Shown here: positions 41,896-55,732 of the stretch, one piece after another
How the letters are laid out: each line of letters opens with the position of its first letter
Position numbering within the stretch: the stretch's first letter is position 1
Source: Candidatus Omnitrophota bacterium
Lineage (GTDB): Bacteria; Omnitrophota; Gorgyraeia; Zapsychrales; Zapsychraceae
NCBI GenBank assembly: GCA_018062515.1
Contig: JAGOSC010000007.1
Span: 1 to 56,864 of the forward strand
Length of the DNA: 56,864 nt
Direction: 5' to 3'
Program-made: the position numbers and the translations under genes
Notes under the pieces: model-generated
What the model saw: the letters and a program-made list of their open reading frames with translations, nothing else
Database searches by the model: none
What the model was told of the DNA's origin: nothing

Positions 41896-42885
41896 ATGAA
41901 TAAACCAGCTCACAAATTAAAAGAATCACCGTTATTTTGGCCGGCCAAATTAAAGGGCGCAACATTAAAAGTTTTGGATGAAACTCAAATTCCGAACAAA
42001 GTTGAATATATTGACGTTAAGTCGACGGGGGACGCGGTTAGAGTCATAAGACAAATGAAAACGAGAGCGTTCGGTCAATTTTTAGTTGTTTTAAATACTT
42101 TTCTTTTGGAATTAAGAGCCAATCCGTCTGTGTCCGATAAAATGCTGTTATTAAAATTGAAGAAAACGGCTGAACGATTAAATAACAGCCGGCCGACATT
42201 TCCTTTTTCGGAAGTCACGTCGATTGTGATTCACTGGGCGAATGATGCTTATGAAAAGAAATTAAATTTACGGGAAATCGTCGCTGTGAATGTTGAAGGC
42301 TATTTAAAAGGCATTCGTTATCGACGATTAGATCGTGTGAATCGTATTGCCAATTTACTTCAAGATGGTGATCGAATTTTGACGCATTGTAATGTTAGCG
42401 GCGAGTTAGCGATGGCATCTAATATTGCCGTTAATCAGAATAAAAAAATTCACTATTTCGCGACGGAAACGCGTCCGTATATGCAAGGCTCTAAGTTGAC
42501 TTGTTGGGAACTTAAACGAATGGGCGCCGATGTAACTCTCATCGCTGATAATGCCATCGGTTCGGTCATGAGTGATGGATTGGTCAATAAAGTCATCGTC
42601 GGATCTGATCGTTCTTGTGCTAATGGTGATTTTGCGAATAAAATCGGCACATATCAAATTGCTGTTTTGGCGAAAGAATTTAATTTGCCATTTTATGTTA
42701 TGACTCAACCGTCGAATAAAGTGAAAACCGGCGAAGACATTCCCATCGAAATCAGAAATGCCAATGAGCTTTTAACGTTTTATAAAAAGAAAATTGTGTC
42801 CGGTGTGATCAATGGTTTCTATCCGGGTTTTGATGTTGTTCCCAATGAATTGATTACCGAATCAATACCGATCAACGTAAATTAG
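41896..42885 (+). CDS. eIF-2B alpha/beta/delta-family sugar-phosphate isomerase (MtnA / 5-deoxyribose-1-P isomerase-like)
   Basis: LTHCNVSGELA (catalytic Cys loop), TETRPYMQG and VGSDRSCANGDFANKIGTYQ (catalytic Asp) motifs. 329 aa. Confidence 0.8.
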   Translation: MNKPAHKLKESPLFWPAKLKGATLKVLDETQIPNKVEYIDVKSTGDAVRVIRQMKTRAFGQFLVVLNTFLLELRANPSVSDKMLLLKLKKTAERLNNSRPTFPFSEVTSIVIHWANDAYEKKLNLREIVAVNVEGYLKGIRYRRLDRVNRIANLLQDGDRILTHCNVSGELAMASNIAVNQNKKIHYFATETRPYMQGSKLTCWELKRMGADVTLIADNAIGSVMSDGLVNKVIVGSDRSCANGDFANKIGTYQIAVLAKEFNLPFYVMTQPSNKVKTGEDIPIEIRNANELLTFYKKKIVSGVINGFYPGFDVVPNELITESIPINVN

Positions 42886-42893
42886 GATGAATC

Positions 42894-43409
42894 ATGAAGG
42901 CTGAACAAGAAAAGCAACAAGATGTATTAAGTGAATTTAAAGAATCGGTCGTATTGATGCAGGGCGTATTTGACCCGATATATTTTGATTTAGTCAAAAA
43001 AAATAATTTCAAAGACGTGTTTGTCCTCGAGGGACGCCCATCATTAGAATCCGCGCAATTTTCGTGTAATGAATTGATTAAACGAAAAATCAAACCGACT
43101 TTAATTGCCGATAGTATGGCGGGTTTTTTGTTTTATAAGAATTTAGTCAAGGAAGTATGGTTATCCTATCAGCAGGTCGACGAAAAAGGTGCTCTATGCC
43201 AAATTGGTGCTTTGATTTTGGGTGTACTCGGGAAAAAACACAATGTGCCGGTTAAAGTTTTTCCTAATCCTTATAAAGTAAATCTCGTCGGCCATCAGAG
43301 AGAAATCTTTTATTTCAATGGCGTGAAGGTTGCTCCCAGCAATATTAAGGGATATGTGCCGTTGGCGGAATGGGTGCCGAGGAAATATATAACGGAGATT
43401 AATTCGTAA
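42894..43409 (+). CDS. Truncated, degenerate eIF-2B-family paralogue (C-terminal Rossmann half only)
   Basis: 171 aa. VLEGRPSLES..ELIKRKIKPTLIADSMAGFLF aligns with TETRPYMQG..TLIADNAIGSVM of the upstream gene. The GSDR catalytic segment reads LSYQ, and the N-terminal domain with the Cys loop is absent. Confidence 0.55.
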   Translation: MKAEQEKQQDVLSEFKESVVLMQGVFDPIYFDLVKKNNFKDVFVLEGRPSLESAQFSCNELIKRKIKPTLIADSMAGFLFYKNLVKEVWLSYQQVDEKGALCQIGALILGVLGKKHNVPVKVFPNPYKVNLVGHQREIFYFNGVKVAPSNIKGYVPLAEWVPRKYITEINS

Positions 43410-44422
43410 TGGCTGATCATATTCAACAATTAAAAGATCATATCATCACCATTGGCCGCCTATTGTGGGAAAAAGATTTAGTCAGCGGTCTTAACGGTAA
43501 CATCAGCGCACGCGTGGATGAAGAAAGAATTTTGTTGACAGCGACGGGATCTTGTTTAGGTATGCTGCAGGAAGAAGATATTCTCCTCATGCGTTTATCT
43601 GGGGAAATGATTGATGAAGGAAAAGTATCGACGGAAAAACTTCTTCATACCGAAATTTATAAAAATTTCAAAGAAACGGCGGCCGTCATACACACGCATT
43701 TAACGTATACCAATGCATACTTTCTAGAGAATGCTGTTTTAAAGCCGAGAATTTTTGAGACACGTATTTATTTAGGCGAAGTTACCGGTGTTCCGCAGAA
43801 TACACCAGCGGTGACCGACGCTGCACCCGTCATCGATTCTTTGAAAAGAAACAATATTGTTGCGCTACGTAATCATGGTGTTGTCGCCATGGGATTAGAA
43901 CACTTTGATTGTTTTTTATTGATTCAAGCGCTTGAAGAAGCAGCCAAGATTGATGCGATTAGTCGGTTATATACAAAGAAGGATCAAGGTTCAACTCATG
44001 ATCAAAAAACGGAAATACAAAATCAGCCGCAGCCTTCAAGTGGAAAAAAATATGCATTATTCTCGTCGGAACAAATCGCGGACATTGTTAAATATGTGAA
44101 TGAAGATCCTCAAATGGCTGAATTAGGTCAAAAGACAAACATGACGATGGATTTAGCGGTTAAGCTGGACGAGACTGGTAAAACATACAGCTTTAGATTC
44201 AAACAAGGCAGAATATCGGAAGTCGGAAATGATGAAAATGCGGAATTTTTAATTAATGCGCCCGAAAAAATTTGGCGAGCGGTTTTTAACCGAGAAATTG
44301 ATCCGTTCGTCGCTACGACGCAAAAGAAAATGCATTTGCGTGGAGATTTCGCGAAGATCTCTAAATGGTATGCGCCTTGTTCACGCGTATTTGAATTGTG
44401 GTCACGGGTACCGGTAGAATAA
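43409..44422 (+). CDS. Class II aldolase/adducin-domain protein fused to a C-terminal SCP2-like domain
   Basis: N-terminal half: LNGNISAR, HTEIY, AVIHTH and RNHGVVAMG (class II aldolase/MtnB/FucA-like metal ligands). Low-complexity linker KKDQGSTHDQKTEIQNQPQPSSGKK. The C-terminal ~120 aa are SCP2-like (..FLINAPEKIWRAVFNREIDPFVATTQKKMHLRGDFAK). TAATG overlap with the previous gene. Confidence 0.72.
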   Translation: MADHIQQLKDHIITIGRLLWEKDLVSGLNGNISARVDEERILLTATGSCLGMLQEEDILLMRLSGEMIDEGKVSTEKLLHTEIYKNFKETAAVIHTHLTYTNAYFLENAVLKPRIFETRIYLGEVTGVPQNTPAVTDAAPVIDSLKRNNIVALRNHGVVAMGLEHFDCFLLIQALEEAAKIDAISRLYTKKDQGSTHDQKTEIQNQPQPSSGKKYALFSSEQIADIVKYVNEDPQMAELGQKTNMTMDLAVKLDETGKTYSFRFKQGRISEVGNDENAEFLINAPEKIWRAVFNREIDPFVATTQKKMHLRGDFAKISKWYAPCSRVFELWSRVPVE

Positions 44423-45909
44423 TGAAAGCAATTGAATTGAGACAATATGAGCTTTTTATCGACGGAAAGTTAGTGTCCGCTCAAAAGTATTTTGATGCCA
44501 TCAATCCTTCGAACGGAGAAGTTTTTGCCAAGATCGCTGATGCTTCCGTTGAAGATATGCATAAAGCCATAGCTGCTGCTCGTCGTGCATTTGATCATGG
44601 GCCTTGGAAAGATTTCAGTTTTGCTCAACGCGGAATTTATCTGAAGAAGATGGCGAAGAAGATCCGAGACCATGCCAAGGAATTAGCTGAATTAGAAACA
44701 TTGAGTGTAGGAAAAACGAGTAAACATGCGAATTTTATTGATGTTCCAACAGCCATTGAAACATTTGAGTATTTTAGTGATGTTAATTTAGAAGGTTTAA
44801 CGCGGATTAATCCCGTCGACGCACCTGTAAAAAGTTTAACCAAGAAAGAACCGCTCGGCGTCATTGGAAGTTTATTTGCTTACAATTATCCGATTATTTA
44901 TTCAGCCTGGAAATTAGCCCCGGCTTTGATGACGGGAAATTGCGTGATTCTAAAACCATCGCCTAAGGCCTGCGCTTCGGTCATGCGTTTAGCGCAATTG
45001 TTGGCTGATTGTGATTTACCTAACGGAGTGATTAATATCGTTTCGACACAAGATAATAAAACCGCTATGGCTTTAGTCAGTCATCCCGACGTCAATATGA
45101 TCAGTTTTACCGGCGGAAATAAAACCGGACAGCTCATTATGCAAGAAGCAGCGAAGACGACTAAAAAGATTTCATTAGAGCTTGGTGGTAAATCACCGAA
45201 TATTGTTTTTGCGGATTGTGAAATGGAAGCGGCTTTAGGAGGAACATTGTCGTCGATATTTATTAATCAAGGACAAATGTGTACGGCCGGATCACGATTA
45301 TTCGTCGAGGAATCAATTTATGAACCGTTTGTTAAGAGATTAGTTGAACGTGCGCGATCGCTTAAAATAGGGGACGCGTCGGATTACACGACGGAATTCG
45401 GACCAATGACTTCAAAAGAACAGAGAGATGCTGTTTTAACTCATATTAATGAAGCGGTGAAGGACGGAGCAAAAATAGCGTGCGGCGGAAAAATACCGAC
45501 GGAAGTTTCTTCAAAAGGATATTATATTGAGCCGACCATTTTAACAAATGTAAACAATAGTATGGCGATTGTCCGCGATGAGGTGTTTGGGCCGGTCTTA
45601 TGTATTTTTAAATTCATCGACGAGAAAAATGTTATTCAAATGGCTAATGATTCCATATTTGGTTTAGCTGCGAGTGTATGGACCAAAGATCCGGCTAAAG
45701 CTGAGCGCGTGACGAATCAATTACAAGTCGGAACGGTTTGGATCAATACGTATGGCGGATTTTATAATCAAGCTCCTTTTGGAGGATATAAGCAGAGTGG
45801 ATTTGGACGCGAGTTAGGCCCAGAAGGAATGCTGGAATATATGCAGACAAAACATGTTTGTATCGACCAGACACCCGGGGGTATGCCTTTAGCCGCGTCG
45901 TGGTTCTGA
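44422..45909 (+). CDS. NAD(P)-dependent aldehyde dehydrogenase
   Basis: ELGGKSP and QGQMCTAGSR (catalytic Cys) motifs. The ATG at 44422 overlaps the aldolase stop (TAATG). Confidence 0.92.
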   Translation: MKAIELRQYELFIDGKLVSAQKYFDAINPSNGEVFAKIADASVEDMHKAIAAARRAFDHGPWKDFSFAQRGIYLKKMAKKIRDHAKELAELETLSVGKTSKHANFIDVPTAIETFEYFSDVNLEGLTRINPVDAPVKSLTKKEPLGVIGSLFAYNYPIIYSAWKLAPALMTGNCVILKPSPKACASVMRLAQLLADCDLPNGVINIVSTQDNKTAMALVSHPDVNMISFTGGNKTGQLIMQEAAKTTKKISLELGGKSPNIVFADCEMEAALGGTLSSIFINQGQMCTAGSRLFVEESIYEPFVKRLVERARSLKIGDASDYTTEFGPMTSKEQRDAVLTHINEAVKDGAKIACGGKIPTEVSSKGYYIEPTILTNVNNSMAIVRDEVFGPVLCIFKFIDEKNVIQMANDSIFGLAASVWTKDPAKAERVTNQLQVGTVWINTYGGFYNQAPFGGYKQSGFGRELGPEGMLEYMQTKHVCIDQTPGGMPLAASWF

Positions 45910-46390: not shown

Positions 46391-47860
46391 ATGAAAGTTT
46401 TATTTTTAACGCCGCCTTTGAAAGCTTGGGATTCACATGGATATCATCGGGCCGCTAATCAAATGCATGCCCAAGCCGCCGCTTATGTACGAAAAAATAA
46501 TACCGCTGACGTTGTGGCATTAGATTGCCGTGCGATGGATTATGATTGGACTGAAATGTTAAATCAGGTGGGAAAAATTAATCCTGATATGGTTTTTTTC
46601 GGAGATCAATTATTTTCGACGTGCGGCGCCGCCGTTATTTGGTATTTTAATGAAGCCATGCGGCTCATCAAAAATAAATTTCCAAACATGATTATGGTTG
46701 GAAGCGGTTTATGGTATTCGGCTGATCCTGATCGTCAAATGCGTTTAAATCCGCAAATTGATTATATTCTGATCGGTGAGGCTGAACTGACATTGAATGA
46801 ATTGCTTCAAAACTTAAAATCTAAAAAACAAGATGAACGGGATATCCCCGGGCTTGTTTCTCGACGAGATAAAAAAACAATCGTCATTGGTCCACATCGA
46901 GGATTGATTCCAGATTTAAATGTGCTTCCAATGCCAGCGTACGATTTATTTCCTATGGATAAATATGTCGGGCATACATATTGGAAACCATTCGCTGAAT
47001 TGATGACATCCCGAGGCTGTCCTGGCAAATGCCATTTTTGTTATGAATGGGCATTATATGACAGTCGTTCAGCGGCGAAAGATTTCACTTCATGGCGAGG
47101 TACGTCGGGTAAGAGAATTGTCGACGAGCTTGATGTTTTGGAAAAACAATATGGAGTAACAACCGTCGTTATGCAGGATGATGCGTTTAACAGTGATACA
47201 AAAGCCATGATCGAATTCTGTGAAGAAAAAATAAAACGCGGAAATAAAATCGGCTGGGTTTGTTTGGGACGAGCTGATCAGTGGATATCACAGCACAGCA
47301 TTTTGCCGCTTATGCGCGAAGCCGGATTGTTTATGGCTTTAACTGGCGTCGAGGTTGAATCCGATGCTCAATTAACAAAGACAGGTAAAGGCGTCACCTT
47401 AGGACAAATCAAACAAACGATTAATATTTTACGTGAGCAAAATATCGGAACGGTTGGAACAGTTTTAATCGGATTGCGCGACGATGATGAAGCAAAGATT
47501 AAAGAACGTTTACGCGTCGCTGATGAAATTGATCCCGACGTATTTGCTTTGGATTATTTGACACCTGTGCCTAATTCTCCGGATTGGCGTTATGGTATTC
47601 AGCAAAAATGGTTTGATCCCGAAACGATTGATTTAAAAACGTGGGATTTTCAACATCCGGTTATCCCGACGGATCATTTGTCCGCCGAGGAAGTCGGCCG
47701 ATTAGGCGCGTGGTGTATGCGTGAATATTATTCCAAACCGGAAAGAATTCATCGAATTATGCAAGCTCCTTACGATATGCGCGTTAAATTATGCGTTAAG
47801 GATTTTATGAGTAATATAGCCAAATGGGAAGCCAATTCCCGGGTGCAGACAAATGCTTAA
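46391..47860 (+). CDS. B12-binding-domain radical SAM enzyme
   Basis: CPGKCHFC (CX3CX2C, nt 47018-47041) preceded by an N-terminal Rossmann-like B12-binding-type domain. 489 aa. SD AGGAGAAA upstream. Confidence 0.88.
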   Translation: MKVLFLTPPLKAWDSHGYHRAANQMHAQAAAYVRKNNTADVVALDCRAMDYDWTEMLNQVGKINPDMVFFGDQLFSTCGAAVIWYFNEAMRLIKNKFPNMIMVGSGLWYSADPDRQMRLNPQIDYILIGEAELTLNELLQNLKSKKQDERDIPGLVSRRDKKTIVIGPHRGLIPDLNVLPMPAYDLFPMDKYVGHTYWKPFAELMTSRGCPGKCHFCYEWALYDSRSAAKDFTSWRGTSGKRIVDELDVLEKQYGVTTVVMQDDAFNSDTKAMIEFCEEKIKRGNKIGWVCLGRADQWISQHSILPLMREAGLFMALTGVEVESDAQLTKTGKGVTLGQIKQTINILREQNIGTVGTVLIGLRDDDEAKIKERLRVADEIDPDVFALDYLTPVPNSPDWRYGIQQKWFDPETIDLKTWDFQHPVIPTDHLSAEEVGRLGAWCMREYYSKPERIHRIMQAPYDMRVKLCVKDFMSNIAKWEANSRVQTNA

Positions 47861-47944: not shown

Positions 47945-48223
47945 ATGAGTGAAGCGCAAACAGTACAGATTCCATGGGAAACAAAGGCGAGTGAGAAATA
48001 TATGTTAATGATTTCCAAAATTCCTTTGTTTCACCGTGATATTGCTAAACAAGTTGTTGATAAACAGGCGGTCATTAACGCTCAACAGCGAGGATCAACA
48101 CAGGTCGAAGAGGGGGATATCATTTTGGCATTTTTTTCCGAAGTGCCGATGACATTTTACAGTTTGATGATCCGCTTGTTTCAGAATGTTGGTTTTGATT
48201 ACAAAAAATATGAACCTAAATAA
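47945..48223 (+). CDS. Small PCP_red-like (protochlorophyllide reductase C-terminal-like) domain protein
   Basis: IPWETKASEKYMLMISKIPLFHRDIAKQVVDKQA resembles the W..eA...L..iP.f.R pattern of PF08369. Family call is tentative. Confidence 0.5.
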   Translation: MSEAQTVQIPWETKASEKYMLMISKIPLFHRDIAKQVVDKQAVINAQQRGSTQVEEGDIILAFFSEVPMTFYSLMIRLFQNVGFDYKKYEPK

Positions 48224-48238: not shown

Positions 48239-49258
48239 ATGAAAATTGCCATTATCGGGGCTGGTGCCATAGGATCAACCTTGGCGGCTTACTTACATAA
48301 AGCCGGAAAAGAAGTGGTCTTAATTGGACAAGAAGGACAGGTCAAAGTTATTAATTCAAAAGGCCTAATGATCCGTCGAGCGGGAAACGATGAAGTTTTT
48401 AAAATTAAAACTTTATCAAAACTCGATCGGGAATATGACTTAGTCATTTTTGCGACGAAGACACAAGATCTTGAGGCGGCTTATTATCAAAACTCTGATT
48501 ATTTGGAAAATTGTTTTGTGTTAACGACTCAGAATGGCGTCCAGGGGGATAATATTTTGAGTAGTCATTTTGACAGAAAAAATCAGATGAGCAGTATTGT
48601 CATGTTTGGTGCTACGTATATAAATCCTGGTGAAATCATCTTTAATTTTCCTGGTGATTGGATTGTCGGTAAACCATTTACCGACAATGACCCGACATTT
48701 CATGGAATATTATCCGAGCTTAAGATGCCCGAAATTCCGATTGTTGTATCCAACGATATTTATGGAATGAAATATTTAAAATTATTTATTAATTTTAATA
48801 ATTGTATTCCGGCGGTGATTGGAAAATCCATGCAGGAAACATTTTCAGATTTGGATCTTTGTCGTTTGAGTATTCGCTTATTGAAAGAAGGATTAGATAT
48901 TCTTAAGACAGTTAATATTGAAATCGTTTCATTGCCTACATTTCCTAAGGAAAGAATTATTGGATTGACCCAAATGCCTGAAGATCAGGCGGCGGGGATT
49001 GTGCAGCAGACATTAATGAAATTAAGCAAAGAACCTTTATACGGTTCAATTTTGCAAAGTATTATGCGCGGTAAACCGTCGGAGATTGAATTTATCAACG
49101 GTGAAGTAGTGGCCTTAGCCAAAGCCATACAGCTTGAAGCTCCTTTGAATCAACAAATTGTTGATCTTGTTCACGTGGTGGAACAAAAGCATAAATATTT
49201 TACCGTCGAGGAAATTAAAGAGAAATTTAAATTAACAGAATCAGTTTTAAAGAAATAA
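48239..49258 (+). CDS. Ketopantoate-reductase (PanE/ApbA) family oxidoreductase
   Basis: MKIAIIGAGAIGS Rossmann N-terminus. Length is 339 aa and the layout is typical of the family. Substrate unknown. Confidence 0.7.
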   Translation: MKIAIIGAGAIGSTLAAYLHKAGKEVVLIGQEGQVKVINSKGLMIRRAGNDEVFKIKTLSKLDREYDLVIFATKTQDLEAAYYQNSDYLENCFVLTTQNGVQGDNILSSHFDRKNQMSSIVMFGATYINPGEIIFNFPGDWIVGKPFTDNDPTFHGILSELKMPEIPIVVSNDIYGMKYLKLFINFNNCIPAVIGKSMQETFSDLDLCRLSIRLLKEGLDILKTVNIEIVSLPTFPKERIIGLTQMPEDQAAGIVQQTLMKLSKEPLYGSILQSIMRGKPSEIEFINGEVVALAKAIQLEAPLNQQIVDLVHVVEQKHKYFTVEEIKEKFKLTESVLKK

Positions 49259-49269
49259 TAGGATAAATC

Positions 49270-50535
49270 ATGAAAAAAAGAAGAGTGGTCGTGACGGGGA
49301 TTGGTGTCATCTCTCCGAATGGAATAGGAAAAGAAGCTTGTTGGGACGGAATGATTAATGGCCGATCAGCTATTAAAAGAGTGACTGAATTTGATGTCTC
49401 CATGTTTAATACAAAAATCGCTGCCCAGGTGCATGATTTTGATCCGATTAAATTGGGATTAACGCGAGACGAAGCGATTCGTACCGATCGTTATGTTCAG
49501 TTTGCCATGGTCGCTGCGCGCATGGCTTTGGAAGATTCTGGAATCAATTTGGAAAAGATTGATCGAACCCGCATGGGTGTTTCATTGGCTAATGCGATTT
49601 GCGGAACAAAATATATGGAAGAAGAATTCGCGCTCGTCACCGACAGCGGAAAAAATCCAATCGATCCGACGATCGTTCGGCCAGATCTTTACGATGCATC
49701 GATGTTTAATACACCGTCGAGTGAAATTTCAGCTAAGTATGGATTAAAAGGTGTTTGCAACACAATCTCGACGGGATGTACCGCCGGAACAGATTCGGTT
49801 GGATTTTCTTTTGAAGCGATTCAAGACGGGGATGTTGACATTATGGTTACCGGAGCGTCGGAAGCGCCGATCACACCCATTACCTTTGGTGCTTTTGATA
49901 CAGTGAATGTTTTATCGGTTCATAATGAACATCCCGAAAAAGCTTCACGGCCATTTGATTCCAAACGTAATGGATTTGTTATTTCTGAAGGCGCCGGTTT
50001 ATTGGTCGTCGAGGAATTGGAGCATGCCAAAGCCCGAGGCGCCAGAATTTATTGTGAAATCGTTGGATTCGGTACTACGTGCAATGCATTTCACATGACC
50101 GATTTACCGCCGGAAGGTGACGCGAAAGCGGCATGCATCAATATGGCCCTCGAAGATGCCCAAGTTAAACCGACGGATATTGACTATATTAATGCTCATG
50201 GATCATCCACGCGGCAGAATGATGTCTTCGAAACAAATGCTTATAAAATGGTTTTTGGCGATTATGCATATAAAGTGCCGATCAGTTCGCTTAAGTCGAT
50301 GATCGGCCATCCGCTCGCCGGTGCTAATGGCATTGAATTAGCAGTGGGCGCATTAATTTTTGAACGCGACATGCTTCCTCCGACGATTAATCAAGAGTTT
50401 CCTGATCCACAGTGTGACCTTGATTACGTTCCCAATAAAGCGAGAAAGCTACGCGTCAACTGTATGTTAAAAACATCCAGCGGATTTTCAGGAATACATT
50501 CGGCGATGGTTTTACGTCGATATAATAAAAATTAG
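49270..50535 (+). CDS. Beta-ketoacyl synthase, type II PKS KS-alpha-like
   Basis: ISTGCTAGTD (Cys170, nt 49777-49779), NAFHMTD, INAHGSST, SLKSMIGHPLGA and DPQCDLDYVP motifs. 421 aa. Confidence 0.9.
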   Translation: MKKRRVVVTGIGVISPNGIGKEACWDGMINGRSAIKRVTEFDVSMFNTKIAAQVHDFDPIKLGLTRDEAIRTDRYVQFAMVAARMALEDSGINLEKIDRTRMGVSLANAICGTKYMEEEFALVTDSGKNPIDPTIVRPDLYDASMFNTPSSEISAKYGLKGVCNTISTGCTAGTDSVGFSFEAIQDGDVDIMVTGASEAPITPITFGAFDTVNVLSVHNEHPEKASRPFDSKRNGFVISEGAGLLVVEELEHAKARGARIYCEIVGFGTTCNAFHMTDLPPEGDAKAACINMALEDAQVKPTDIDYINAHGSSTRQNDVFETNAYKMVFGDYAYKVPISSLKSMIGHPLAGANGIELAVGALIFERDMLPPTINQEFPDPQCDLDYVPNKARKLRVNCMLKTSSGFSGIHSAMVLRRYNKN

Positions 50536-50543
50536 GAGTTTAA

Positions 50544-51776
50544 ATGAATAAAATAGCCATCACTGGTTTTGGTGTTGTCTCGCCCAGCGGGATTGATGCT
50601 AGAAAATTTTGGGCCAACGTTAAAGCTGGTCATTCTGCCGTCGAATCCATTACGCGATTTGATGCTTCAAAATATACATCACGCATTGCGGGCCATGTCC
50701 ATGAACTCGACGTTTACAGTAGTGTGTCGTCGAGATTATTGAAGAAAATTGATGTTTTTTCTCATATGGCGCTGGTAGCGTCGGAGATGGCTATTACCGA
50801 TGCGAAATTGGATTTAGAAAAAGAAAATCTCAATCGTGCCGGAATTTTTATGGGCAATGCAATTGGCGGTTGGCTGTACGGTGAAACGGAATTACGCGAT
50901 TTATATATTGAAGGGCGTGAAGGCGTCAGTCCTTTTATGGCGTCCGCGTGGTTTCCCGCGGCCCCTCAGGGACAAGTTTCGATTCGCTACGGAATGAAAG
51001 GTTATAGTAAAACGGTCGTCGCTGATCGAGCCAGTTCATTAATGGCTATCGCTTATGGCGCGCGAACGTTAAATCGAGGTAAAAATGATTTTATTCTCGC
51101 TGGTGGAATGGAAGCGCCGGTAACTCCTTATGCTTTATTATGCTGCCAAACATCGGGTGTTTTAACACAACAAAATGAAAATCCCTCGACGGCGTATAAA
51201 CCTTTTGACCGAAACCGCGACGGGTTCGCGATTGCCGAAGGTGCGGGTGTTGTTACTTTAGAATCTTTCGAGAGGGCTCAAAAACGCGGAGCACATGTTT
51301 ACGCCAACATTGTCGGCTTCGGAACGACGACGGATGGCGTTGACCGAATTGATCCATCTGATGATGGAATAGAGTTAGCGCGAGCGATAAAGTTAGCTCT
51401 CGACGACGCAAAGTTGAAACCAAGTGATATTGATTATATTTGTCTCGATGGAGCCGCAACAATACTCGGCGATATTGGCGAAACAAAAGCCATTAAACAA
51501 GTTTTTAATGGTCATTCTAAGAAGTTACTTTGTTCAGCGCCGAAAGCTACTTATGGAAATATGTTGGGCGCGACAGGTGCCGTCGATGTCATCACCACTA
51601 TTTTGGCGATGAAACATAATATTGTTCCACCGACGACTAATTCGAATGATCCAGATCCGCAATGTGATTTAAATATATGCAGAAATACCGCTCAAGAACG
51701 TCAAATTAATAATGCATTGATTATTAATCGCGGACGCGGCGGTATCAACTGTGCTTTAATTTTACAAAAACCGTAA
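50544..51776 (+). CDS. Ketosynthase-fold partner lacking the active-site Cys (chain-length-factor / KS-beta-like)
   Basis: KS fold throughout. The active-site segment reads VVADRASSLMA, with Arg162 (nt 51027-51029) where KS has Cys and CLF has Gln. DPDPQCDLN near the C-terminus. Starts 8 nt after the KS stop. Confidence 0.8.
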   Translation: MNKIAITGFGVVSPSGIDARKFWANVKAGHSAVESITRFDASKYTSRIAGHVHELDVYSSVSSRLLKKIDVFSHMALVASEMAITDAKLDLEKENLNRAGIFMGNAIGGWLYGETELRDLYIEGREGVSPFMASAWFPAAPQGQVSIRYGMKGYSKTVVADRASSLMAIAYGARTLNRGKNDFILAGGMEAPVTPYALLCCQTSGVLTQQNENPSTAYKPFDRNRDGFAIAEGAGVVTLESFERAQKRGAHVYANIVGFGTTTDGVDRIDPSDDGIELARAIKLALDDAKLKPSDIDYICLDGAATILGDIGETKAIKQVFNGHSKKLLCSAPKATYGNMLGATGAVDVITTILAMKHNIVPPTTNSNDPDPQCDLNICRNTAQERQINNALIINRGRGGINCALILQKP

Positions 51777-51800
51777 ATATTTGTTACAAAGGAGAGAGTC

Positions 51801-52037
51801 GTGGCTGTCGAAACAACACTTAATCGTATTTTTAATAAAGTATTAGACCTTAGTCCTGAAGATATTGTTAAGGATGAGCCTCTGGATCAAGCGCATGAAG
51901 TCGACTCAACCGAAATGGTGGAGATTTCCGTCGGGCTTAAGAAAGAATTAAAGATTGATATCGGTGATAATGAATTAAAGAAAACACATTCTTATAAAGA
52001 TATCGTCGGTATTTTAAAGGCTAAAGGAATTGCGTAA
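51801..52037 (+). CDS. Acyl carrier protein
   Basis: 78 aa. EVDSTEMVEI matches the (L/V)DS(L/T)..VE phosphopantetheine-Ser motif. GTG start with SD AAGGAGAG. Confidence 0.8.
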   Translation: MAVETTLNRIFNKVLDLSPEDIVKDEPLDQAHEVDSTEMVEISVGLKKELKIDIGDNELKKTHSYKDIVGILKAKGIA

Positions 52038-52139
52038 ATGTTGCAGACCAGTAAACAAAAGATCATAGCCGGATTTATATTGATTGGTTTGGCGGCTATT
52101 ATTTCTTTATATATTTTTTATTCTATTTTCGACGCGTAA
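52038..52139 (+). CDS. Candidate 33-aa single-TM micro-protein
   Basis: MLQTSKQKIIAGFILIGLAAIISLYIFYSIFDA. The ATG immediately abuts the ACP stop (TAAATG). Below the ORF-track cutoff. Confidence 0.35.
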   Translation: MLQTSKQKIIAGFILIGLAAIISLYIFYSIFDA

Positions 52140-52177
52140 AAGAAATTTAGTCACTAAACATCAAGTAAAGGATTTGA

Positions 52178-52978
52178 ATGAAGATTATTGATTTAAGTTT
52201 GCCCATTGACGATACCTTAATAGAAACACATGACGCCAAGATTGACCGCATCACGCATGCCGCTGGAGTTGAGCATTTTAATTGGGTGGTTATGAATAAA
52301 CGGCCAGGCGGGCAAGAGGCGTTTGATCGTGGAGAAAGGGTAGCGACCAAAGAAGAAATTCCAGATGGTGAAATGTTATCATTGGAAATTGTTCATTCAT
52401 CCGTTCATATGGGAACTCACGTGGATGCTCCGTTTCACTATGGCAGTACCTGTGAAGGGAAGCCAGCCAAACAAATTGAAGATGTTCCTTTGGAATGGTG
52501 TTTTGGTCCGGGGGTTGTTCTTGATTTTACACACATGCATTATCCGCAGAATATTACTAAAAAAGAAATTATCGAAGCGTTGGACAAAATCAATTATCAC
52601 CTCAAACCTTTGGATATTGTTCTTATTTATACCGGAGGCGATAAACTTCTCGGAACGCCTGACTATGTGAATAAATATGTCGGTATGATGCCCGACGCTG
52701 TTGAATATTTGTTGGACCAGGGAATTAAGATGATGGGCGTTGATACCATCGGTTTAGATCGTCCGTGTTTTGAAATGTTCAAAGAATTTTTAGAAACGAA
52801 AGATAAATCAAAGATTTGGCCGTCCCATTTTCTTGGGCGCCGGCGTGAATATTGTCATATGGAACGGTTGGGTAATTTGGGTGCGATCCCTAAACCATAT
52901 GGATTTACTGTGTCTTGTTTGCCAGTGAAGGTAAAGAATGCTGGAGCTGGATGGAGTAGGGTTGTCGCTATTGTTTAA
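52178..52978 (+). CDS. Cyclase-family protein (kynurenine-formamidase fold, PF04199-like)
   Basis: HSSVHMGTHVDAPFH metal-binding signature. 266 aa. Confidence 0.75.
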   Translation: MKIIDLSLPIDDTLIETHDAKIDRITHAAGVEHFNWVVMNKRPGGQEAFDRGERVATKEEIPDGEMLSLEIVHSSVHMGTHVDAPFHYGSTCEGKPAKQIEDVPLEWCFGPGVVLDFTHMHYPQNITKKEIIEALDKINYHLKPLDIVLIYTGGDKLLGTPDYVNKYVGMMPDAVEYLLDQGIKMMGVDTIGLDRPCFEMFKEFLETKDKSKIWPSHFLGRRREYCHMERLGNLGAIPKPYGFTVSCLPVKVKNAGAGWSRVVAIV

Positions 52979-52992
52979 AAAAGGATTTGAAT

Positions 52993-53106
52993 ATGACCGA
53001 TGATAAGAATTCAAACCAGCCTTCAAAGTACAAATTTACCCGCGATGACTTTATTTTGTTATTAGTCATTATTTGGGCCATCTGTATGATCGTTTTTCGA
53101 TATTAA
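52993..53106 (+). CDS. Candidate 37-aa single-TM micro-protein
   Basis: MTDDKNSNQPSKYKFTRDDFILLLVIIWAICMIVFRY. AAGGA lies 8 nt upstream. Below the ORF-track cutoff. Confidence 0.35.
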   Translation: MTDDKNSNQPSKYKFTRDDFILLLVIIWAICMIVFRY

Positions 53107-53151
53107 TTAGCTCTTCATACTGAATTCTTATATATTTACTCTAATATATAG

Positions 53152-53188
53152 GCAAGAAAGGGTTTTATATCTTTTCTTGCTTTTTTAT
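53152..53188 (+). terminator. Rho-independent terminator inside the accessory block
   Basis: GCAAGAAAGGG / CTTTTCTTGC stem of about 11 bp (with G-U pairs), a 7-nt loop, then TTTTTTATT. Confidence 0.65.
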
Positions 53189-53266
53189 TAAGTTTTTCAT
53201 ACTATATATATTAATTATAATTTATATAAGAAGTCTTATACGTAATAATCGTTAAGGAGGATTTTC

Positions 53267-53722
53267 ATGGCTCATACAGTCAATTCCATATTTATTCAAG
53301 CACCCTTTGAGATCACCTTTAAGATTTCCAATCATATTGAGCGCTGGACAGAGTTGTTTGGCGATGAATACGTTAGCGCGGATGTGCTGGAGCGTAAAGG
53401 TAATGAAATTACTTTTCGATTAACGGACGAAGATGGTAAATCATGGGTGTCTAAACGTTGGCTGCATCCAGAACAAAAATATGCTTATGCTTCCCGGCAT
53501 GATCCGATGTTTCCTTTTAAATATATGAAAATTGTTTGGTTTTATCATGAGCAGGATGGCGGCACGCTCATGACATGGGTACAGGATTTTGAAATGGATC
53601 CTGGATTTAAAAAATTTACGGAAGAACAGATTGCCGGATTTATTAACGAACATTCGCAGCATAATTTAAAAATTTTTAAAAACGTGATTGAGAAAGAAGC
53701 GGCGCAAACCGCCCATAAATAA
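53267..53722 (+). CDS. SRPBCC-superfamily protein (polyketide cyclase/dehydrase-like)
   Basis: 151 aa. The N-terminal ..SIFIQAPFEITFKISNHIERW.ELF.. matches the usual start of Polyketide_cyc2/TcmN-ARO-like domains. SD AAGGAGG upstream. Confidence 0.68.
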   Translation: MAHTVNSIFIQAPFEITFKISNHIERWTELFGDEYVSADVLERKGNEITFRLTDEDGKSWVSKRWLHPEQKYAYASRHDPMFPFKYMKIVWFYHEQDGGTLMTWVQDFEMDPGFKKFTEEQIAGFINEHSQHNLKIFKNVIEKEAAQTAHK

Positions 53723-53759
53723 AATTTGAGATCATCAATAAATACGAAAGTGAGTCATT

Positions 53760-54533
53760 ATGAAATTAACAGGCAAAAACGCAATTATTACTGGAGCATC
53801 AAAAGGAATTGGAAACGCGATAGCGACACGTTTGGCTATAGAAGGCGCTAATGTTGTCCTAGCGGCAAGAACCAAATCAACCCTGGATGAAGCGGTCAAT
53901 GAAATTAAAAAACAATCCAATGCGGGTGTTTTAGGTGTTGTGTGTGATGTGGCTAATTTTGAAGATTTACAAAATTTAGTCGATACGGCCCGCAAGAATT
54001 TTGGTCCGATTGATATTCTCATTAATAATGCCGGCGTGTCCAGCCAATATCCTTTCGAAAAACAACCGTTTGAAGATTTCGAAAAACTGGTCCAAACAAA
54101 CTACCTCGGATATGTCCGCCTCATTCGTCTGGTCATCAATGAAATGATTGAACGCAAACAAGGATCGATTATCAATACCGTTTCTGGTTCGACGCTGGTT
54201 GATCCAATTCCGCGCGGATTTCTAACTTACAGTTCTCTTAAGGTTGGACTGAAAGCATTCTTAAAAGGATTATTTTGGGAAATGCGTGATCATGGAATTA
54301 AAGTGACCTCAATTCTTCCTGGCGTTGTTGATTCAGACTTAACGGATAAACTTCAACATATTACGCGCGAACAAAAAGATCGTTTGATGAGTACACAGAC
54401 CGTCGTCGATATGGTCATGTTTGCATTATCTCTTCCAGCGAATGTTTGTCCTCTGGAATTAGCTGTAATTAATCAGCAAACACCATGGACGCAACCGATC
54501 ATTGATTACAAACAGCAACAGGCAAAAGCTTAA
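53760..54533 (+). CDS. Short-chain dehydrogenase/reductase (ketoreductase-type)
   Basis: TGASKGIG cofactor motif, NNAG, and a YSSLK catalytic Tyr-x3-Lys. 257 aa. Confidence 0.9.
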   Translation: MKLTGKNAIITGASKGIGNAIATRLAIEGANVVLAARTKSTLDEAVNEIKKQSNAGVLGVVCDVANFEDLQNLVDTARKNFGPIDILINNAGVSSQYPFEKQPFEDFEKLVQTNYLGYVRLIRLVINEMIERKQGSIINTVSGSTLVDPIPRGFLTYSSLKVGLKAFLKGLFWEMRDHGIKVTSILPGVVDSDLTDKLQHITREQKDRLMSTQTVVDMVMFALSLPANVCPLELAVINQQTPWTQPIIDYKQQQAKA

Positions 54534-54573
54534 AAATATTTTAAACCAAAAAAATTAAAAGGAGGTGATTAGA

Positions 54574-54807
54574 ATGGATAAAACGATAGCGACATTTTCA
54601 AAAAACAAGTTCCAGGAAATTCGCGTAGGCATCCGTGAGTTCAAAGGTAATGACCTGATTGATATCAGAACATGGACCATGACTCAAGGAACGGAAGAAA
54701 TGGTTCCTACCGCCAAAGGTGTTTCCATCAATATTCATTTATTGGCCGATTTAAAAAAATGTCTGGATGACGTGGAAAGAATTTTAAAAGAAAATAAAAT
54801 GCTTTAA
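54574..54807 (+). CDS. PC4/YdbC-like small ssDNA-binding-fold protein
   Basis: F.KN.FQEIRVGIREFKGNDLIDIRTW....G.E.MVPTAKGVSI resembles the PC4 family. The ATG at 54574 follows SD AAAGGAGG. Family call is tentative. Confidence 0.5.
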   Translation: MDKTIATFSKNKFQEIRVGIREFKGNDLIDIRTWTMTQGTEEMVPTAKGVSINIHLLADLKKCLDDVERILKENKML

Positions 54808-54820
54808 TTGACGGTTTTTC

Positions 54821-55732
54821 ATGAATCAAATCATTGATGCACATAGTCATTACATGCCGCCTGAGGTGGCACAGAATACAGCTTTTTTTAAACAAGGTTG
54901 GTCTGATGTCGGTAAGCAGCTTGAAATCATGGATCAGCATGGCATCGAAAAATCCCTCTTGTTATATCCCACCAGTGATGCTCATCTTAATATCGGCGGA
55001 TGGAATAAATTAGCCGAAATCTATAATCATAAAATCAGTGAAATTATTGCTAAATATCCGGATCGTTTTATCGGCGCTTGTGTCATTCCATTTAACGATC
55101 CTATGGGAAGAGATAGTATTTTAAAATCATTTCAGAATAATAATTTTAAAGTTCTTAGTTTGTCATCGAGTTGTGAAGGCGTTTATCTCGACGATGATTT
55201 CTTTAAACCCGTGTTTGAATATGCTCAAGCTAAGCATATTCCCATCCATGTTCACGCGCAAATTATGAATCCCATCGGGAGTGAGCGCGTCAATGACCCG
55301 TTATTGTCACCGGTATTAGAGTATGTTTTTGACGTTTCGATGTGTATCGGAAAGATGATGATGTCAGGGGTTTTTTTACAGTTTCCCGACGTGAAATTTA
55401 TCTTCCCGCATTACGGAGGAGTATTGCCGATTGTTAAAGAACGTTTTGATTCGACGTACGGGATGCTTAGAAAAAGAAACTTTGTTAAGGATCTCTCCAA
55501 ATCTCCGAGTGAATATTTTAAAAATTTGTATTTCGATACGAGCGGATCAAAATCCGTCGCCTCATTATTATGTGCATTAGAAGTTACGGATCCGTCTCAT
55601 CTTTTATTCGGCAGTGATTTTCCCGCCAATCAGAATATTTCCTCGTCGATAGATGTATTACAGCAGTCCAACCTCTCCAAGGATGATATTCACAAAATAC
55701 GTTACAGTAATATTTTAAGCCTACTGAATTAA
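54821..55732 (+). CDS. Amidohydrolase_2 (ACMSD-type metal-dependent hydrolase/decarboxylase) family protein
   Basis: IIDAHSHYMPPE N-terminal His-x-His, internal HVH, and C-terminal LFGSDFP (Asp ligand). 303 aa. Confidence 0.75.
   Translation: MNQIIDAHSHYMPPEVAQNTAFFKQGWSDVGKQLEIMDQHGIEKSLLLYPTSDAHLNIGGWNKLAEIYNHKISEIIAKYPDRFIGACVIPFNDPMGRDSILKSFQNNNFKVLSLSSSCEGVYLDDDFFKPVFEYAQAKHIPIHVHAQIMNPIGSERVNDPLLSPVLEYVFDVSMCIGKMMMSGVFLQFPDVKFIFPHYGGVLPIVKERFDSTYGMLRKRNFVKDLSKSPSEYFKNLYFDTSGSKSVASLLCALEVTDPSHLLFGSDFPANQNISSSIDVLQQSNLSKDDIHKIRYSNILSLLN

Follow-up and report, generated by a model that had tools for sequence, protein, structure and literature searches.

A probable aromatic type II polyketide synthase at the core of a larger conserved gene cluster in Omnitrophota

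The producers of clostrubin typify an early-branching, non-actinobacterial kind of aromatic type II polyketide synthase (PKS). Pairs of a ketosynthase (KS) and a chain length factor (CLF) from Candidatus Omnitrophica are listed in a 2023 catalogue (PMC10132072), so the presence of KS-CLF pairs in the Omnitrophota is not new, and heterodimers of KS/CLF-like type occur in another PVC phylum as well, within ladderane clusters of fatty-acid-like character (bioRxiv 10.64898/2026.05.19.726425). The locus described here lies in a window of 56,864 nucleotides (the whole stretch of DNA that was analysed, with a GC content of 36-43%) from an Omnitrophota MAG. The host thus belongs to the PVC group, as guessed in a previous sequence-only reading, which called the genome AT-rich and PVC-like. 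That reading also expected possible undescribed chemistry, which holds for product and function and not for the catalogued occurrence of KS-CLF pairs, and it had cautioned that the gene order might be that of a widespread, already characterised lipid locus: the order is indeed widespread, yet no paper characterising it was found in the literature.

The open reading frames that had been claimed between 49270 and 55732 are all in place, each scoring above the Pfam threshold of the family assigned to it, and a PC4-like frame absent from the earlier gene list lies among them (Table 1). The conserved cluster extends over about 38.4-55.7 kb, roughly 17 kb, setting in some 11 kb upstream of the 49270 start first noted, and adds to those genes an acyl-CoA ligase, nucleoside phosphorylases, MtnA-like isomerases, a class II aldolase-SCP2 fusion, an aldehyde dehydrogenase, a BchE-like B12 radical-SAM enzyme and a PanE-like reductase. 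Gene spacing is tight from 38490 to 52978. Pattern scans place one promoter-like site at 38397-38424, after the PadR gene, and another at 53194-53221, after a terminator-like hairpin that likely divides the cluster into two transcription units. The best explanation of the whole is that an aromatic type II PKS of the kind typified by the clostrubin producers probably constitutes the core of this larger conserved pathway.

Table 1. Features of the conserved cluster and its upstream edge (window coordinates)
Feature	Position	Strand	Basis
PadR-family regulator, upstream edge; cluster membership tentative	37840..38355	+	PF03551; PadR gene at equivalent position in L001
AMP-forming acyl-CoA/ACP ligase, medium/long-chain or aryl-acid type	38490..40004	+	PF00501 + PF13193
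Nucleoside phosphorylase or nucleosidase (PNP_UDP_1), copy 1	40347..41126	+	PF01048
Nucleoside phosphorylase paralog, copy 2	41137..41892	+	PF01048; 48% identity to copy 1
MtnA-like sugar-1-phosphate isomerase, IF-2B family	41896..42885	+	PF01008
Short IF-2B paralog, C-terminal half of fold only	42894..43409	+	PF01008, profile positions 126-271 of 280
Class II aldolase fused to SCP2 lipid-binding domain	43409..44422	+	PF00596 + PF02036
NAD(P)-dependent aldehyde dehydrogenase	44398..45909	+	PF00171, 555 bits
B12-binding radical-SAM enzyme, BchE/HpnJ-like	46391..47860	+	PF04055, 45.5 bits, passes
Small conserved DUF2621-like protein, 3' of radical-SAM gene	47945..48223	+	weak PF11084 match
PanE/ApbA-family NAD(P)H reductase, upstream of KS	48239..49258	+	PF02558 + PF08546; TIGR00745 159.5 vs cut-off 141
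KS-alpha, catalytic ketosynthase	49270..50535	+	PF00109 + PF02801; Cys170/His/His/Lys
CLF-like inactive KS partner, 'DRAS' type	50544..51776	+	Arg/Asp/Asp at triad positions; start 8 nt past KS-alpha
Acyl carrier protein (ACP)	51801..52037	+	PF00550, 25.9 bits; GTG start; 24 nt past CLF-like partner; DST serine motif
PF04199 metal-dependent cyclase, OxyN-type	52178..52978	+	PF04199, 109 bits; HMGTHVDAPFH motif
Terminator-like hairpin, 14-bp stem + T-run	53150..53182	+	pattern scan only
Monodomain TcmN/WhiE-type aromatase/cyclase, 151 aa, SRPBCC	53267..53722	+	PF10604, 28.9 bits vs cut-off 27.4
SDR; candidate ketoreductase	53760..54533	+	PF00106, 178 bits
PC4/p15-like small protein, 80 aa	54565..54807	+	PF02229, 49 bits; between SDR and amidohydrolase
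Amidohydrolase_2 enzyme resembling non-oxidative aromatic-acid decarboxylases	54821..55732	+	PF04909

That this core is an aromatic type II PKS appears highly probable. The KS carries all of the motifs that had been read as marks of an aromatic KS-alpha (STGCTAG with Cys170, HMTD, NAHGSST and DPQCDLDYVP); in alignments the first three agree with Act KS-alpha and AntD (STGCTSG, HMT, HGS) and differ from FabF (TACATG, HIT, HGT), whereas the fourth, as DPxCDLDYVP, is shared by FabF and does not discriminate. Its top PDB matches are Act KS-alpha (1TQY_A, 394 bits) and AntD (6SMO_B, 391 bits), followed by the best FabF at 372 bits and the ishigamide KS at 229, and in the loop at residues 130-160 of the window KS, FabF is 5 residues shorter than the window KS, Act KS and AntD. 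A neighbour-joining tree with limited references, which contains no Act CLF, AntE, aryl-polyene or highly reducing type II sequences, groups the protein not with FabF but with the KS of the Clostridium locus, AntD and Act KS-alpha (bootstrap 93.5). Against the FabF equivalog model it scores 472, just below the cut-off of 494, and it passes the broad KASII subfamily model.

The neighbouring KS-fold protein, correctly described as lacking the Cys, carries in the alignment an Arg in place of the catalytic Cys and an Asp in place of each His, and retains the Lys. Its DRAS motif is common to homologs from Clostridium beijerinckii/puniceum, Ktedonobacter and Archangium; among named relatives the C. 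beijerinckii/puniceum partner KS is the closest (44% identity), and a homolog bearing a Deltaproteobacteria MAG name is 57% identical. Taken as a whole, the protein resembles FabF (308 bits) more than it does Act CLF (231 bits). The ACP presents its serine within EVDSTEM. Both putative cyclases score against cyclase families, as the earlier reading would have it: the PF04199 protein does so in Pfam (Table 1), and the sole PDB matches of the SRPBCC protein, which retains the ELF-EY and WVSxR segments, are WhiE ARO/CYC (E 2.6e-25) and TcmN (4.5e-23). When nearly all ORFs of 110 aa or longer, together with the small cluster ORFs, were scanned with Pfam, neither FabZ/FabA nor an enoyl reductase, MCAT or PPTase turned up in the window, in agreement with that reading, and its type II aromatic interpretation is supported by the KS clade, the triad-less partner, the cyclase matches and the lack of dehydratase and enoyl reductase. 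The classic first-ring combination of ketoreductase and aromatase/cyclase that it invoked fits poorly. Monodomain TcmN-type cyclases are the type that serves unreduced chains, and the SDR is generic and FabG-like by its PDB matches, of which the 30 best include none named as an actinorhodin-type ketoreductase; it is missing from relatives of the L003 and L096 type. The amidohydrolase has homologs in the Clostridium locus, L003 and L089, and its best PDB matches are LigW, a 5-carboxyvanillate decarboxylase (5e-24), and a gamma-resorcylate decarboxylase (2e-19). The PC4-like protein is 77-78% identical in close Omnitrophota relatives and missing from more distant ones.

Upstream of the PKS, the ligase has a long-chain-fatty-acid-CoA ligase subfamily as its top NCBIfam match (454 bits, against just 274 for acetate-CoA ligase) and stays with the cluster in L001, L099, L140, L133 and L112. 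The first phosphorylase copy matches the Udp/DeoD, MTA nucleosidase and HpnG models weakly, in each case under the cut-off, and is present in 38 of 80 Omnitrophota loci, namely those whose contig extends that far; L001 and L003 have one called phosphorylase gene apiece. The large isomerase passes the TIGR00524 subfamily cut-off (189.8 vs 185.85) and falls under that of the MtnA equivalog; its short paralog is 28% identical to it, and the pair recurs in L003, L096, L140 and L149. The aldolase-SCP2 fusion occurs in 53 Omnitrophota loci and is missed in none that extends to it; in L088 an SCP2 domain is joined to a B12 radical-SAM protein. An aldehyde:ferredoxin oxidoreductase stands in for the aldehyde dehydrogenase in L003, L096, L112, L116 and L090. 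The radical-SAM enzyme scores below cut-off on PF02310 (29.4 vs 32.1 bits), the BchE model (175 vs 481) and the ladderane radical-SAM model (74 vs 360), and its gene is found in all relatives whose CLF is 55% or more identical and whose contig extends to it. The DUF2621-like protein is seen in 65 Omnitrophota loci, again missed in none that extends to it, with a homolog in L090 (39% identity), and the PanE-like gene lies upstream of the KS in all arrangements seen, either directly or with one or two small ORFs between.

Phosphorylase, MtnA and class II aldolase together constitute the known 'DHAP shunt' for 5'-deoxyadenosine/MTA. It is conceivable, if not favoured, that the PKS is real and that these genes and the aldehyde dehydrogenase provide only housekeeping salvage, adjoining it by inherited synteny for general clean-up: the enzyme families fit the shunt chemistry step by step, gene order is generally conservative over the 80 Omnitrophota loci, and the identities of these genes (50-64%) fall far short of those of the PKS and radical-SAM genes (73-84%). 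Among more distant loci (CLF identity 55-73%, including one lineage with Deltaproteobacteria MAG protein names), however, the gene set accompanies the PKS despite rearrangement into at least five different orders, with phosphorylase on one side and isomerases and aldolase on the other in L140, and all of them downstream rather than upstream in L003, L096 and L149; alongside KS pairs of less than 40% identity the set is absent. The aldolase-SCP2 fusion is retained in L003 too, the dehydrogenase is replaced rather than lost, and the ligase scores better on long-chain and aryl-acid ligase models than on the acetate-CoA one. On balance, the radical-SAM and nucleoside module seems functionally coupled to the PKS.

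The gene set is found in at least 80 Omnitrophota species genomes, and the full block in essentially all of the 80 loci that extend far enough. Median identities are 83.5% for the PF04199 cyclase (the most conserved protein of the locus), 81% for the KS, 77% for the radical-SAM enzyme and 74% for the CLF-like partner (range 71-89%), against 56% for the aldehyde dehydrogenase and 59% for the ApbA-type reductase. Such lineage-wide conservation suggests a physiologically important product, a molecule on which Omnitrophota depend, rather than a sporadic antibiotic. An ordinary secondary-metabolite cluster, yielding a clostrubin- or anthraquinone-like antibiotic or pigment that serves the predatory or host-dependent way of life suggested for Omnitrophota and playing no core physiological role, would accord with the homology to the clostrubin-producing clostridia locus and other non-actinobacterial aromatic PKSs and with the MFS and MMPL exporters inserted in some relatives; it seems unlikely, as antibiotic clusters are not usually so widespread or under such purifying selection (neighbouring metabolic genes stand at 50-60% identity), and the window holds no resistance gene or dedicated PPTase and the PadR gene as sole candidate regulator. 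Quite improbable is the reading of the KS pair as a dedicated elongation system of the fatty-acid type, in the manner of aryl-polyene systems or of the FabF2/FabFmut heterodimer of anammox ladderanes, that makes an unusual membrane lipid later modified by the B12 radical-SAM enzyme, with the 'cyclases' as lipid-binding or hydrolase proteins: the near-FabF score of the KS, the FabF-like character of its partner, the FabG-like SDR, an adjacent B12 radical-SAM gene as in ladderane clusters, the SCP2 domain, the MMPL exporter and DUF1329 lipoprotein-sorting-type protein of L003 and L096, the antiSMASH 'ladderane' clusters reported from Omnitrophota and Desulfobacterota MAGs (PMC9902471) and the PVC precedent all speak for it, but dehydratase and enoyl reductase were not found in the Pfam scans of the window, the SRPBCC protein has WhiE and TcmN aromatase/cyclases as its only PDB matches and keeps their conserved segments, an aromatic-acid decarboxylase homolog is conserved, the KS groups with KS-alphas, the ladderane radical-SAM score is far below cut-off and the core genes are homologous to the clostrubin-producer locus.

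For the aromatic type II PKS, then, a pathway can be drafted, although the specific order of its steps is doubtful. Drawing on the housekeeping MCAT and PPTase, the KS/CLF would add malonyl units to a starter carried on the ACP, giving a poly-beta-ketone with little or no reduction; the TcmN-type cyclase would close and aromatise the first ring and the PF04199 cyclase a further one; the PanE-like reductase and/or the SDR might reduce a carbonyl, and the amidohydrolase would remove a terminal aryl carboxylate. The B12 radical-SAM enzyme may then act on this hydrophobic product by oxygen-independent C-methylation, oxidation or C-C bond formation, leaving a 5'-deoxyadenosine-type nucleoside (plain 5'-deoxyadenosine or, less conventionally, a 5'-C-adduct) that phosphorylase, isomerase and aldolase would turn into DHAP and an aldehyde. 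Oxidation would turn this aldehyde into an acid and the ligase would activate it, likely for priming a KS/CLF in which the CLF is without the self-priming Gln of canonical systems. The idea of a respiratory quinone as product is weakened by a recent complete-genome survey of Omnitrophota, according to which their electron transport chain is incomplete and their carbon metabolism fermentative.

Where canonical CLFs have this Gln, the CLF-like partner in the window has an Arg. Judged by homology, the core genes share ancestry with the locus of the clostrubin-producing clostridia, at identities to the window proteins of 47% for the KS, 44% for the CLF, 48% for the PF04199 cyclase, 43% for the SRPBCC protein and 31% for the Amidohydro_2 enzyme.

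[quoted passage not shown] The ketosynthase (KS) contains the catalytic Cys170/His/His/Lys set, and its best matches in the PDB, at 45% identity, are Act KS-alpha (1TQY_A, 394 bits) and Photorhabdus AntD (6SMO_B, 391 bits), as against at most 372 bits for FabFs and 229 bits for the ishigamide KS. In alignments, STGC, HMT and HGS are common to KS and the KS-alphas where FabF has TACA, HIT and HGT, and a 5-residue gap in a FabF loop is absent from KS, Act KS and AntD. A neighbor-joining tree (200 bootstraps), computed from numpy distances on a limited set of references that includes neither Act CLF nor AntE, places KS in a clade with Act KS-alpha, AntD and the KS of the C. beijerinckii locus (support 93.5), apart from the FabFs of Bacillus, Listeria and Pseudomonas. 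Catalytic residues, PDB ranking, motifs and tree thus agree in favoring a KS-alpha over a FabF, as had been read from the sequence. A primary-metabolism FabF was considered and rejected: KS (471.9 bits) and its partner (396.2 bits) both score below the cut-off of the FabF equivalog TIGR03150 (493.75 bits), the partner lacks the triad, and KS falls in the KS-alpha clade.

That partner, the second KS, begins 8 nt after KS and was correctly described as lacking the active-site Cys. Arg occupies the Cys position, where the Gln of canonical chain-length factors (CLFs), associated with decarboxylative priming, is not present; Asp stands at both His positions, and the motif VVADRASS is shared with homologs from Clostridium, Ktedonobacter and Archangium. 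As a match to this protein, Act CLF scores 231 bits versus 308 bits for FabF, and FabFs also rank first when the Archangium CLF-like protein is the PDB query. In the tree, the second KS groups with the partner KSs of C. beijerinckii and C. puniceum and with other CLF-like proteins. Its nearest relatives outside the Omnitrophota clade, in a search of 1.84 billion representatives that was dominated by the summed scores of giant type I PKSs and yielded 22 usable proteins of 380-480 aa, lie at 57% and then at no more than 45% identity; their source names are Deltaproteobacteria MAGs (57%), C. beijerinckii and C. puniceum (44%), Archangium (41%) and Ktedonobacter (39%).

The remaining core genes point in the same direction. 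The ACP scores 25.9 bits on PF00550 (cut-off 20.8) and has its serine in an EVDSTEM motif. Among all PDB sequences, the 151-aa SRPBCC protein matches only the aromatase/cyclases WhiE (E 2.6e-25) and TcmN (4.5e-23), and it keeps the ELF-EY and WVSxR segments, which we take to contain Tyr35 and Arg69 of TcmN. The PF04199 protein reaches 109 bits on its family; its PDB relatives are weak (kynurenine formamidase, isatin hydrolase), whereas the cyclase at the Clostridium locus shares 48% identity with it. The amidohydrolase is closest, in the PDB, to the 5-carboxyvanillate decarboxylase LigW and to gamma-resorcylate decarboxylase. Both cyclase assignments made from the sequence are thus upheld, and dedicated TcmN- and OxyN-family cyclases are present. 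Also as claimed, Pfam scans of nearly all ORFs of at least 110 aa and of the small cluster ORFs called no FabZ, FabA, enoyl reductase, MCAT or PPTase, and a DH/ER reductive loop was not found in the window. The combination of KS, CLF and ACP with a monomeric TcmN-type and an OxyN-type cyclase is the architecture considered ancestral in PMC7693217, following Hillenmeyer et al. The window has this architecture, and the interpretation as a type II aromatic PKS is therefore accepted: at the level of sequence, a bacterial aromatic type II PKS is the supported assignment for the locus. The ketoreductase of the proposed first-ring toolkit fits less well: an ActKR-type C9 ketoreductase is not supported for the SDR, which matches generic FabG-like proteins only and whose gene is missing from relatives of the type of L003 and L096. 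A conserved 80-aa PC4-like ORF between the SDR and the amidohydrolase had been overlooked.

Coordinates of the features discussed, in the window and in related loci (L003, L087, L088), with median identity across 80 Omnitrophota loci; a pairwise comparison gives the same uneven pattern of identities
Feature	Sequence	Coordinates	Median identity
DeoC/LacD-family aldolase (349 aa)	window	15232-16281	
Chalcone-isomerase-like protein (PF16036) and nitroreductase	window	16404-17583	
GH57/DUF3536 protein and 4-alpha-glucanotransferase (GH77)	window	29120-32057	
ORF, 122 aa	window	40001-40369	
Two tandem PNP_UDP_1 paralogs	window	40347-41892	
IF-2B pair, large / small	window	41896-43409	63 / 50%
Aldehyde dehydrogenase (ALDH)	window		56%
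ORF, 118 aa, hydrophobic	window	45996-46352	
B12 radical-SAM (rSAM)	window	46391-47860	77%
ApbA (PanE-like reductase)	window		59%
KS	window	49270-50535	81%
Second KS (CLF)	window	50544-51776	74%
ACP	window	51801-52037	
PF04199 cyclase	window	52178-52978	83.5%
14-bp terminator-like hairpin	window	53150-53182	
SRPBCC cyclase	window	53267-53722	73%
SDR	window	53760-54533	73%
PC4-like	window	54565-54807	78%
Amidohydro_2	window	54821-55732	
Promoter-like site before 16S rRNA gene	window	55886-55914	
16S rRNA gene, 5' part	window	56029-56864	
TIGR04076-family protein	L003	8029-8619	
IF-2B pair	L003	19198-20689	
PF16036-family protein	L087	4544-5134	
B12-binding/radical-SAM/SCP2 fusion	L088	14895-15621	

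Several features of the window lie outside the conserved genes. It makes up one complete contig of 56,864 bp. Its GC content is 36-43%, all but one of its 57 ORFs of at least 110 aa are on the + strand and GC skew is positive in every 2-kb bin, so that the whole contig looks like a single co-directional leading-strand stretch. Directly downstream of the cluster, and preceded by a promoter-like site, the contig ends within a bacterial 16S rRNA gene, of which it contains the 5' 827 positions. Assemblies typically break in this way at rRNA operons, and the fragment could be used to place the organism. The chalcone-isomerase-like protein lies beside a nitroreductase 30 kb upstream of the PKS, and a protein of its family also lies beside a different KS/CLF cluster (L087). 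The DeoC/LacD-family aldolase follows a NUDIX protein; its family presumably includes ADH synthase, an archaeal enzyme of the DKFP route, by which aromatic amino acids are made and which has been linked to 5'-deoxyadenosine salvage. The side-by-side GH57/DUF3536 and GH77 genes suggest glycogen or alpha-glucan metabolism. Inside the conserved block, the ORFs of 122 and 118 aa match nothing in Pfam and lack counterparts in all related loci; they may be specific to the lineage, or may not be genes.

The best 120 database relatives are 81-100% (KS) and 75-100% (second KS) identical to the window proteins and, wherever named, come from Omnitrophica/Omnitrophota MAGs, a PVC-group phylum in line with the PVC-like lineage recognized earlier. 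When GTDB species were scanned with one genome each, 465 genomes proved to contain a relative of the second KS; these need not all be Omnitrophota, since the search patterns are also found in other DRAS-type CLFs; the best 80 of these 465 (71-89% identity) are titled Omnitrophota, Omnitrophica, 'uncultured Planctomycetales', 'bacterium' or 'uncultured bacterium'. The title 'uncultured Planctomycetales bacterium' is borne by the MAGs of L013, L014, L024, L027 and about 30 further loci (71-79% CLF identity); found among Omnitrophota-titled MAGs, it probably reflects coarse taxonomic labelling. The cluster itself is larger than had been thought, for conserved genes run on upstream of KS. In L001, a related locus with 81% KS identity, the order is PadR, AMP-ligase, PNP_UDP_1, two IF-2B, class II aldolase, ALDH, B12 radical-SAM, DUF2621, ApbA and PKS, and the window has the same upstream genes. 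Across the 80 Omnitrophota loci, almost every gene from phosphorylase to SRPBCC cyclase is found where the contig reaches (ApbA in 68/68, cyclase 74/74, aldolase 53/53, rSAM 55/60), and the last three genes are missed slightly more often (SDR found in 55/57, PC4 in 45/51, amidohydrolase in 44/52). As read from these sequences, the window-type PKS is kept under strong purifying selection across the Omnitrophota.

More distant relatives bear on which of these genes belong together. L003, with 57% CLF identity and a CLF named as a Deltaproteobacteria MAG protein, begins with MMPL, DUF1329, rSAM, aldehyde:ferredoxin oxidoreductase (AFOR), ApbA and a TIGR04076 protein, continues with KS, CLF, ACP, cyclase, SRPBCC, MFS, AFOR, Amidohydro_2 and an amine-oxidase-like flavoprotein, and ends with PNP, IF-2B, a short IF-2B and an aldolase-SCP2 fusion. 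A metagenome scan seeded with its CLF returned loci at 33-94% identity to that protein. Those with 55-73% CLF identity to the window all keep rSAM, ApbA, KS, CLF, both cyclases and Amidohydro_2 where the contig reaches, with ACP and SDR detected in most; flanks permitting, phosphorylase, isomerases, aldolase and ALDH or AFOR are kept too, and the ligase in several. Loci below 40% CLF identity have none of the phosphorylase, isomerase, aldolase, ALDH/AFOR and ligase genes. At least five gene orders occur among the relatives; in one locus (L140), the phosphorylase lies on one side of the PKS and the isomerase and aldolase genes on the other. This retention with the PKS across divergence and gene orders is an argument for counting the radical-SAM enzyme and the nucleoside-processing genes as part of the PKS pathway. 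Two further features of the relatives concern other proteins. In L003 and most scanned loci, a double-domain, cysteine-rich TIGR04076-family protein lies between ApbA and KS. Neither the window nor L102 and L105, the two metagenome loci closest to it, have this protein, and L001 has an unrelated 154-aa ORF between DUF2621 and ApbA. L088 ends a different KS/CLF-cyclase cluster (CLF 42-43% identical to that of the window) with an 800-aa protein, its gene running off the locus, that combines B12-binding, radical-SAM and SCP2 domains.

The best model for rSAM is BchE (TIGR02026, 174.6 bits against a cut-off of 481.35), and the model of lipid-biosynthesis B12 radical-SAM enzymes (TIGR04072) gives 74.3 bits against 360. 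The phosphorylase, isomerase and aldolase Pfam families are all present; the isomerase clears the cut-off of the broad TIGR00524 subfamily and of no narrower model, and no curated equivalog is reached by the phosphorylases or the aldolase, so that a role in dihydroxyacetone-phosphate (DHAP)-shunt chemistry is a putative one. The window has two tandem phosphorylase paralogs, 48% identical, where L001 and L003 have one called PNP gene each. In the window as in L003, a full-length MtnA-like IF-2B is followed by a half-length paralog that comprises the C-terminal part only, and the conservation of this pair in all lineages with the cluster suggests a heteromeric isomerase.

On these grounds a pathway can be proposed. 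KS, CLF and ACP would build a poly-beta-ketone, which the TcmN-type and PF04199 cyclases would fold and aromatize; the PanE-like reductase and/or the SDR would reduce a carbonyl, the LigW-like enzyme would decarboxylate an aryl acid, and the BchE-like enzyme would carry out an oxygen-independent modification. Phosphorylase, MtnA-like isomerase and class II aldolase would convert a 5'-deoxyadenosine-type nucleoside into DHAP and an aldehyde, which ALDH or AFOR and the ligase would turn into an acyl thioester. The acid so activated may be larger than acetate and may prime the PKS, as suggested by a CLF without the priming Gln, by a ligase that scores higher on long-chain and aryl-acid models than on acetate-CoA ligase, and by the lipid-binding SCP2 domain of the aldolase. 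Pattern matches to operon signals (promoter-like sites before the ligase and before the SRPBCC gene, close spacing of the genes up to the cyclase, and the terminator-like hairpin) are consistent with this model. Alternatively, and more conservatively, the nucleoside genes, whose families are those of the DHAP shunt, may perform plain salvage of the radical-SAM by-product. A ladderane cluster was rejected on the low score of the rSAM model and on the presence of aromatic cyclases. BchE proper was likewise dismissed, with rSAM well below cut-off and no family of bacteriochlorophyll or tetrapyrrole genes among those called in the ORFs scanned across the window.

Taken furthest, the proposed pathway leads to a reading that we regard as unlikely: that the set of about 15 genes forms a lineage-wide, primary-metabolism-like pathway of the Omnitrophota and of some relatives with Deltaproteobacteria MAG names, in which a PKS-derived aromatic ring is joined to radical-SAM 5'-deoxyadenosyl chemistry in an oxygen-independent route to a conserved redox cofactor, a quinone-like head group or a membrane lipid. 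A 5'-C-adenosylated hydrophobic intermediate (cf. aminofutalosine and adenosylhopane) would then be phosphorolysed, isomerized and cut by the SCP2-bearing aldolase, and the two-carbon extension left would be oxidized, CoA-activated and fed to the PKS. In many Omnitrophota a 4-hydroxybenzoate prenyltransferase is present without a chorismate lyase, and an alternate aromatic source has been inferred for them (Seymour et al., PMC10066038). Hence, a head-group role is conceivable, and such a route could be that 'alternate source'. Against this role counts a complete-genome survey (preprint), which reports that in the Omnitrophota the electron transport chain is incomplete and carbon metabolism is fermentative. 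This uncultivated phylum is described as mostly ultra-small cells with streamlined genomes (PMC10066038).

The earlier expectation that a type II system would mean undescribed chemistry in such a lineage holds in part. Candidatus Omnitrophica is already among 14 phyla with catalogued KS-CLF pairs (PMC10132072), and this phylum listing is the only mention of an Omnitrophota type II PKS that we found in the literature; a 2026 preprint on KS evolution and the Omnitrophota complete-genome preprint do not mention one. Calls of 'ladderane' by antiSMASH in Omnitrophota MAGs (PMC9902471) may represent the window locus type. In the literature searched, we found neither the extended gene set nor its conservation across the lineage nor its product described, and the radical-SAM and nucleoside module matched no PKS cluster reported there. 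What is new is thus the lineage-wide conservation and this unusual module.

The usual view of aromatic type II PKSs is that they make secondary metabolites, occur sporadically and are found mainly in actinomycetes. If the product proved to be a cofactor, a redox lipid or an envelope component, the accepted role of these enzymes would widen, and oxygen-independent tailoring chemistry would be exposed as well. Work on Omnitrophota physiology could use the pathway as a marker, both chemical and genetic, and, even conservatively, the loci make up a large, coherent, uncharacterized family of anaerobe-type aromatic PKS clusters, whose compact set of about 17 kb is suited to heterologous expression.

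Among known systems, the locus of the clostrubin producers C. beijerinckii and C. puniceum is the closest, followed by the Act and Ant minimal PKSs. ClrB is described as a CLF of an ancestral C20 clade (PMC7693217). The Clostridium locus resembles the window cluster in KS, DRAS-type CLF, PF04199 cyclase, monodomain SRPBCC cyclase, Amidohydro_2 and ACP (identities of 47, 44, 48, 43 and 31% for KS, CLF, PF04199, SRPBCC and Amidohydro_2), in a strictly anaerobic host, and in that no oxygenase family is among the Pfam calls at either locus. In contrast to the window, it encodes PPTases of its own and a KSIII priming enzyme, together with CMD, DUF362 and DUF169 proteins and hydrolases, and it is without B12 radical-SAM, PanE-like reductase, phosphorylase, isomerases, aldolase-SCP2, ALDH and ligase, so that solely the PKS, cyclase and amidohydrolase core is shared. 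Clostrubin-type clusters are known from a few strains and are not known to be lineage-wide. The Act (1TQY) and AntD/E (6SMO) systems differ in their tailoring genes, no ActKR-type reductase being evident in the window, and Arg in the window CLF contrasts with the active-site Gln of canonical CLFs. As for the SRPBCC cyclase, its monodomain matches TcmN and WhiE both act in actinomycete C20-C24 systems, and TcmN differs from it in being fused to an O-methyltransferase.

For the nucleoside module, the nearest parallel is the DHAP shunt (MtnP or MtnN/K, MtnA, Ald2), with phosphorylase, IF-2B isomerase and class II aldolase in the same logical order. The radical-SAM adenosylation and nucleoside-cleavage steps of the futalosine (MqnE/MqnB) and hopanoid (HpnH/HpnG) pathways offer a further analogy, and a radical-SAM enzyme likewise adjoins the window module. 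The window differs in phosphorylases that score below every curated MtnP, MtnN and HpnG cut-off, in the half-length isomerase paralog and in the SCP2 domain on the aldolase; unlike the shunt, its module is part of a PKS cluster that also has an acyl-CoA ligase and ALDH or AFOR. Neither MqnE nor HpnH is known to be a B12-domain enzyme. Finally, the anammox amxFabF2/amxFabFmut pair provides a heterodimer of a KS and a triad-less KS in a PVC bacterium, with radical-SAM genes adjoining (bioRxiv 10.64898/2026.05.19.726425). The window rSAM does not match the ladderane rSAM model, and where the anammox cluster is fatty-acid-like, the window instead combines its KS pair with TcmN- and OxyN-type cyclases and an aryl-acid decarboxylase homolog.
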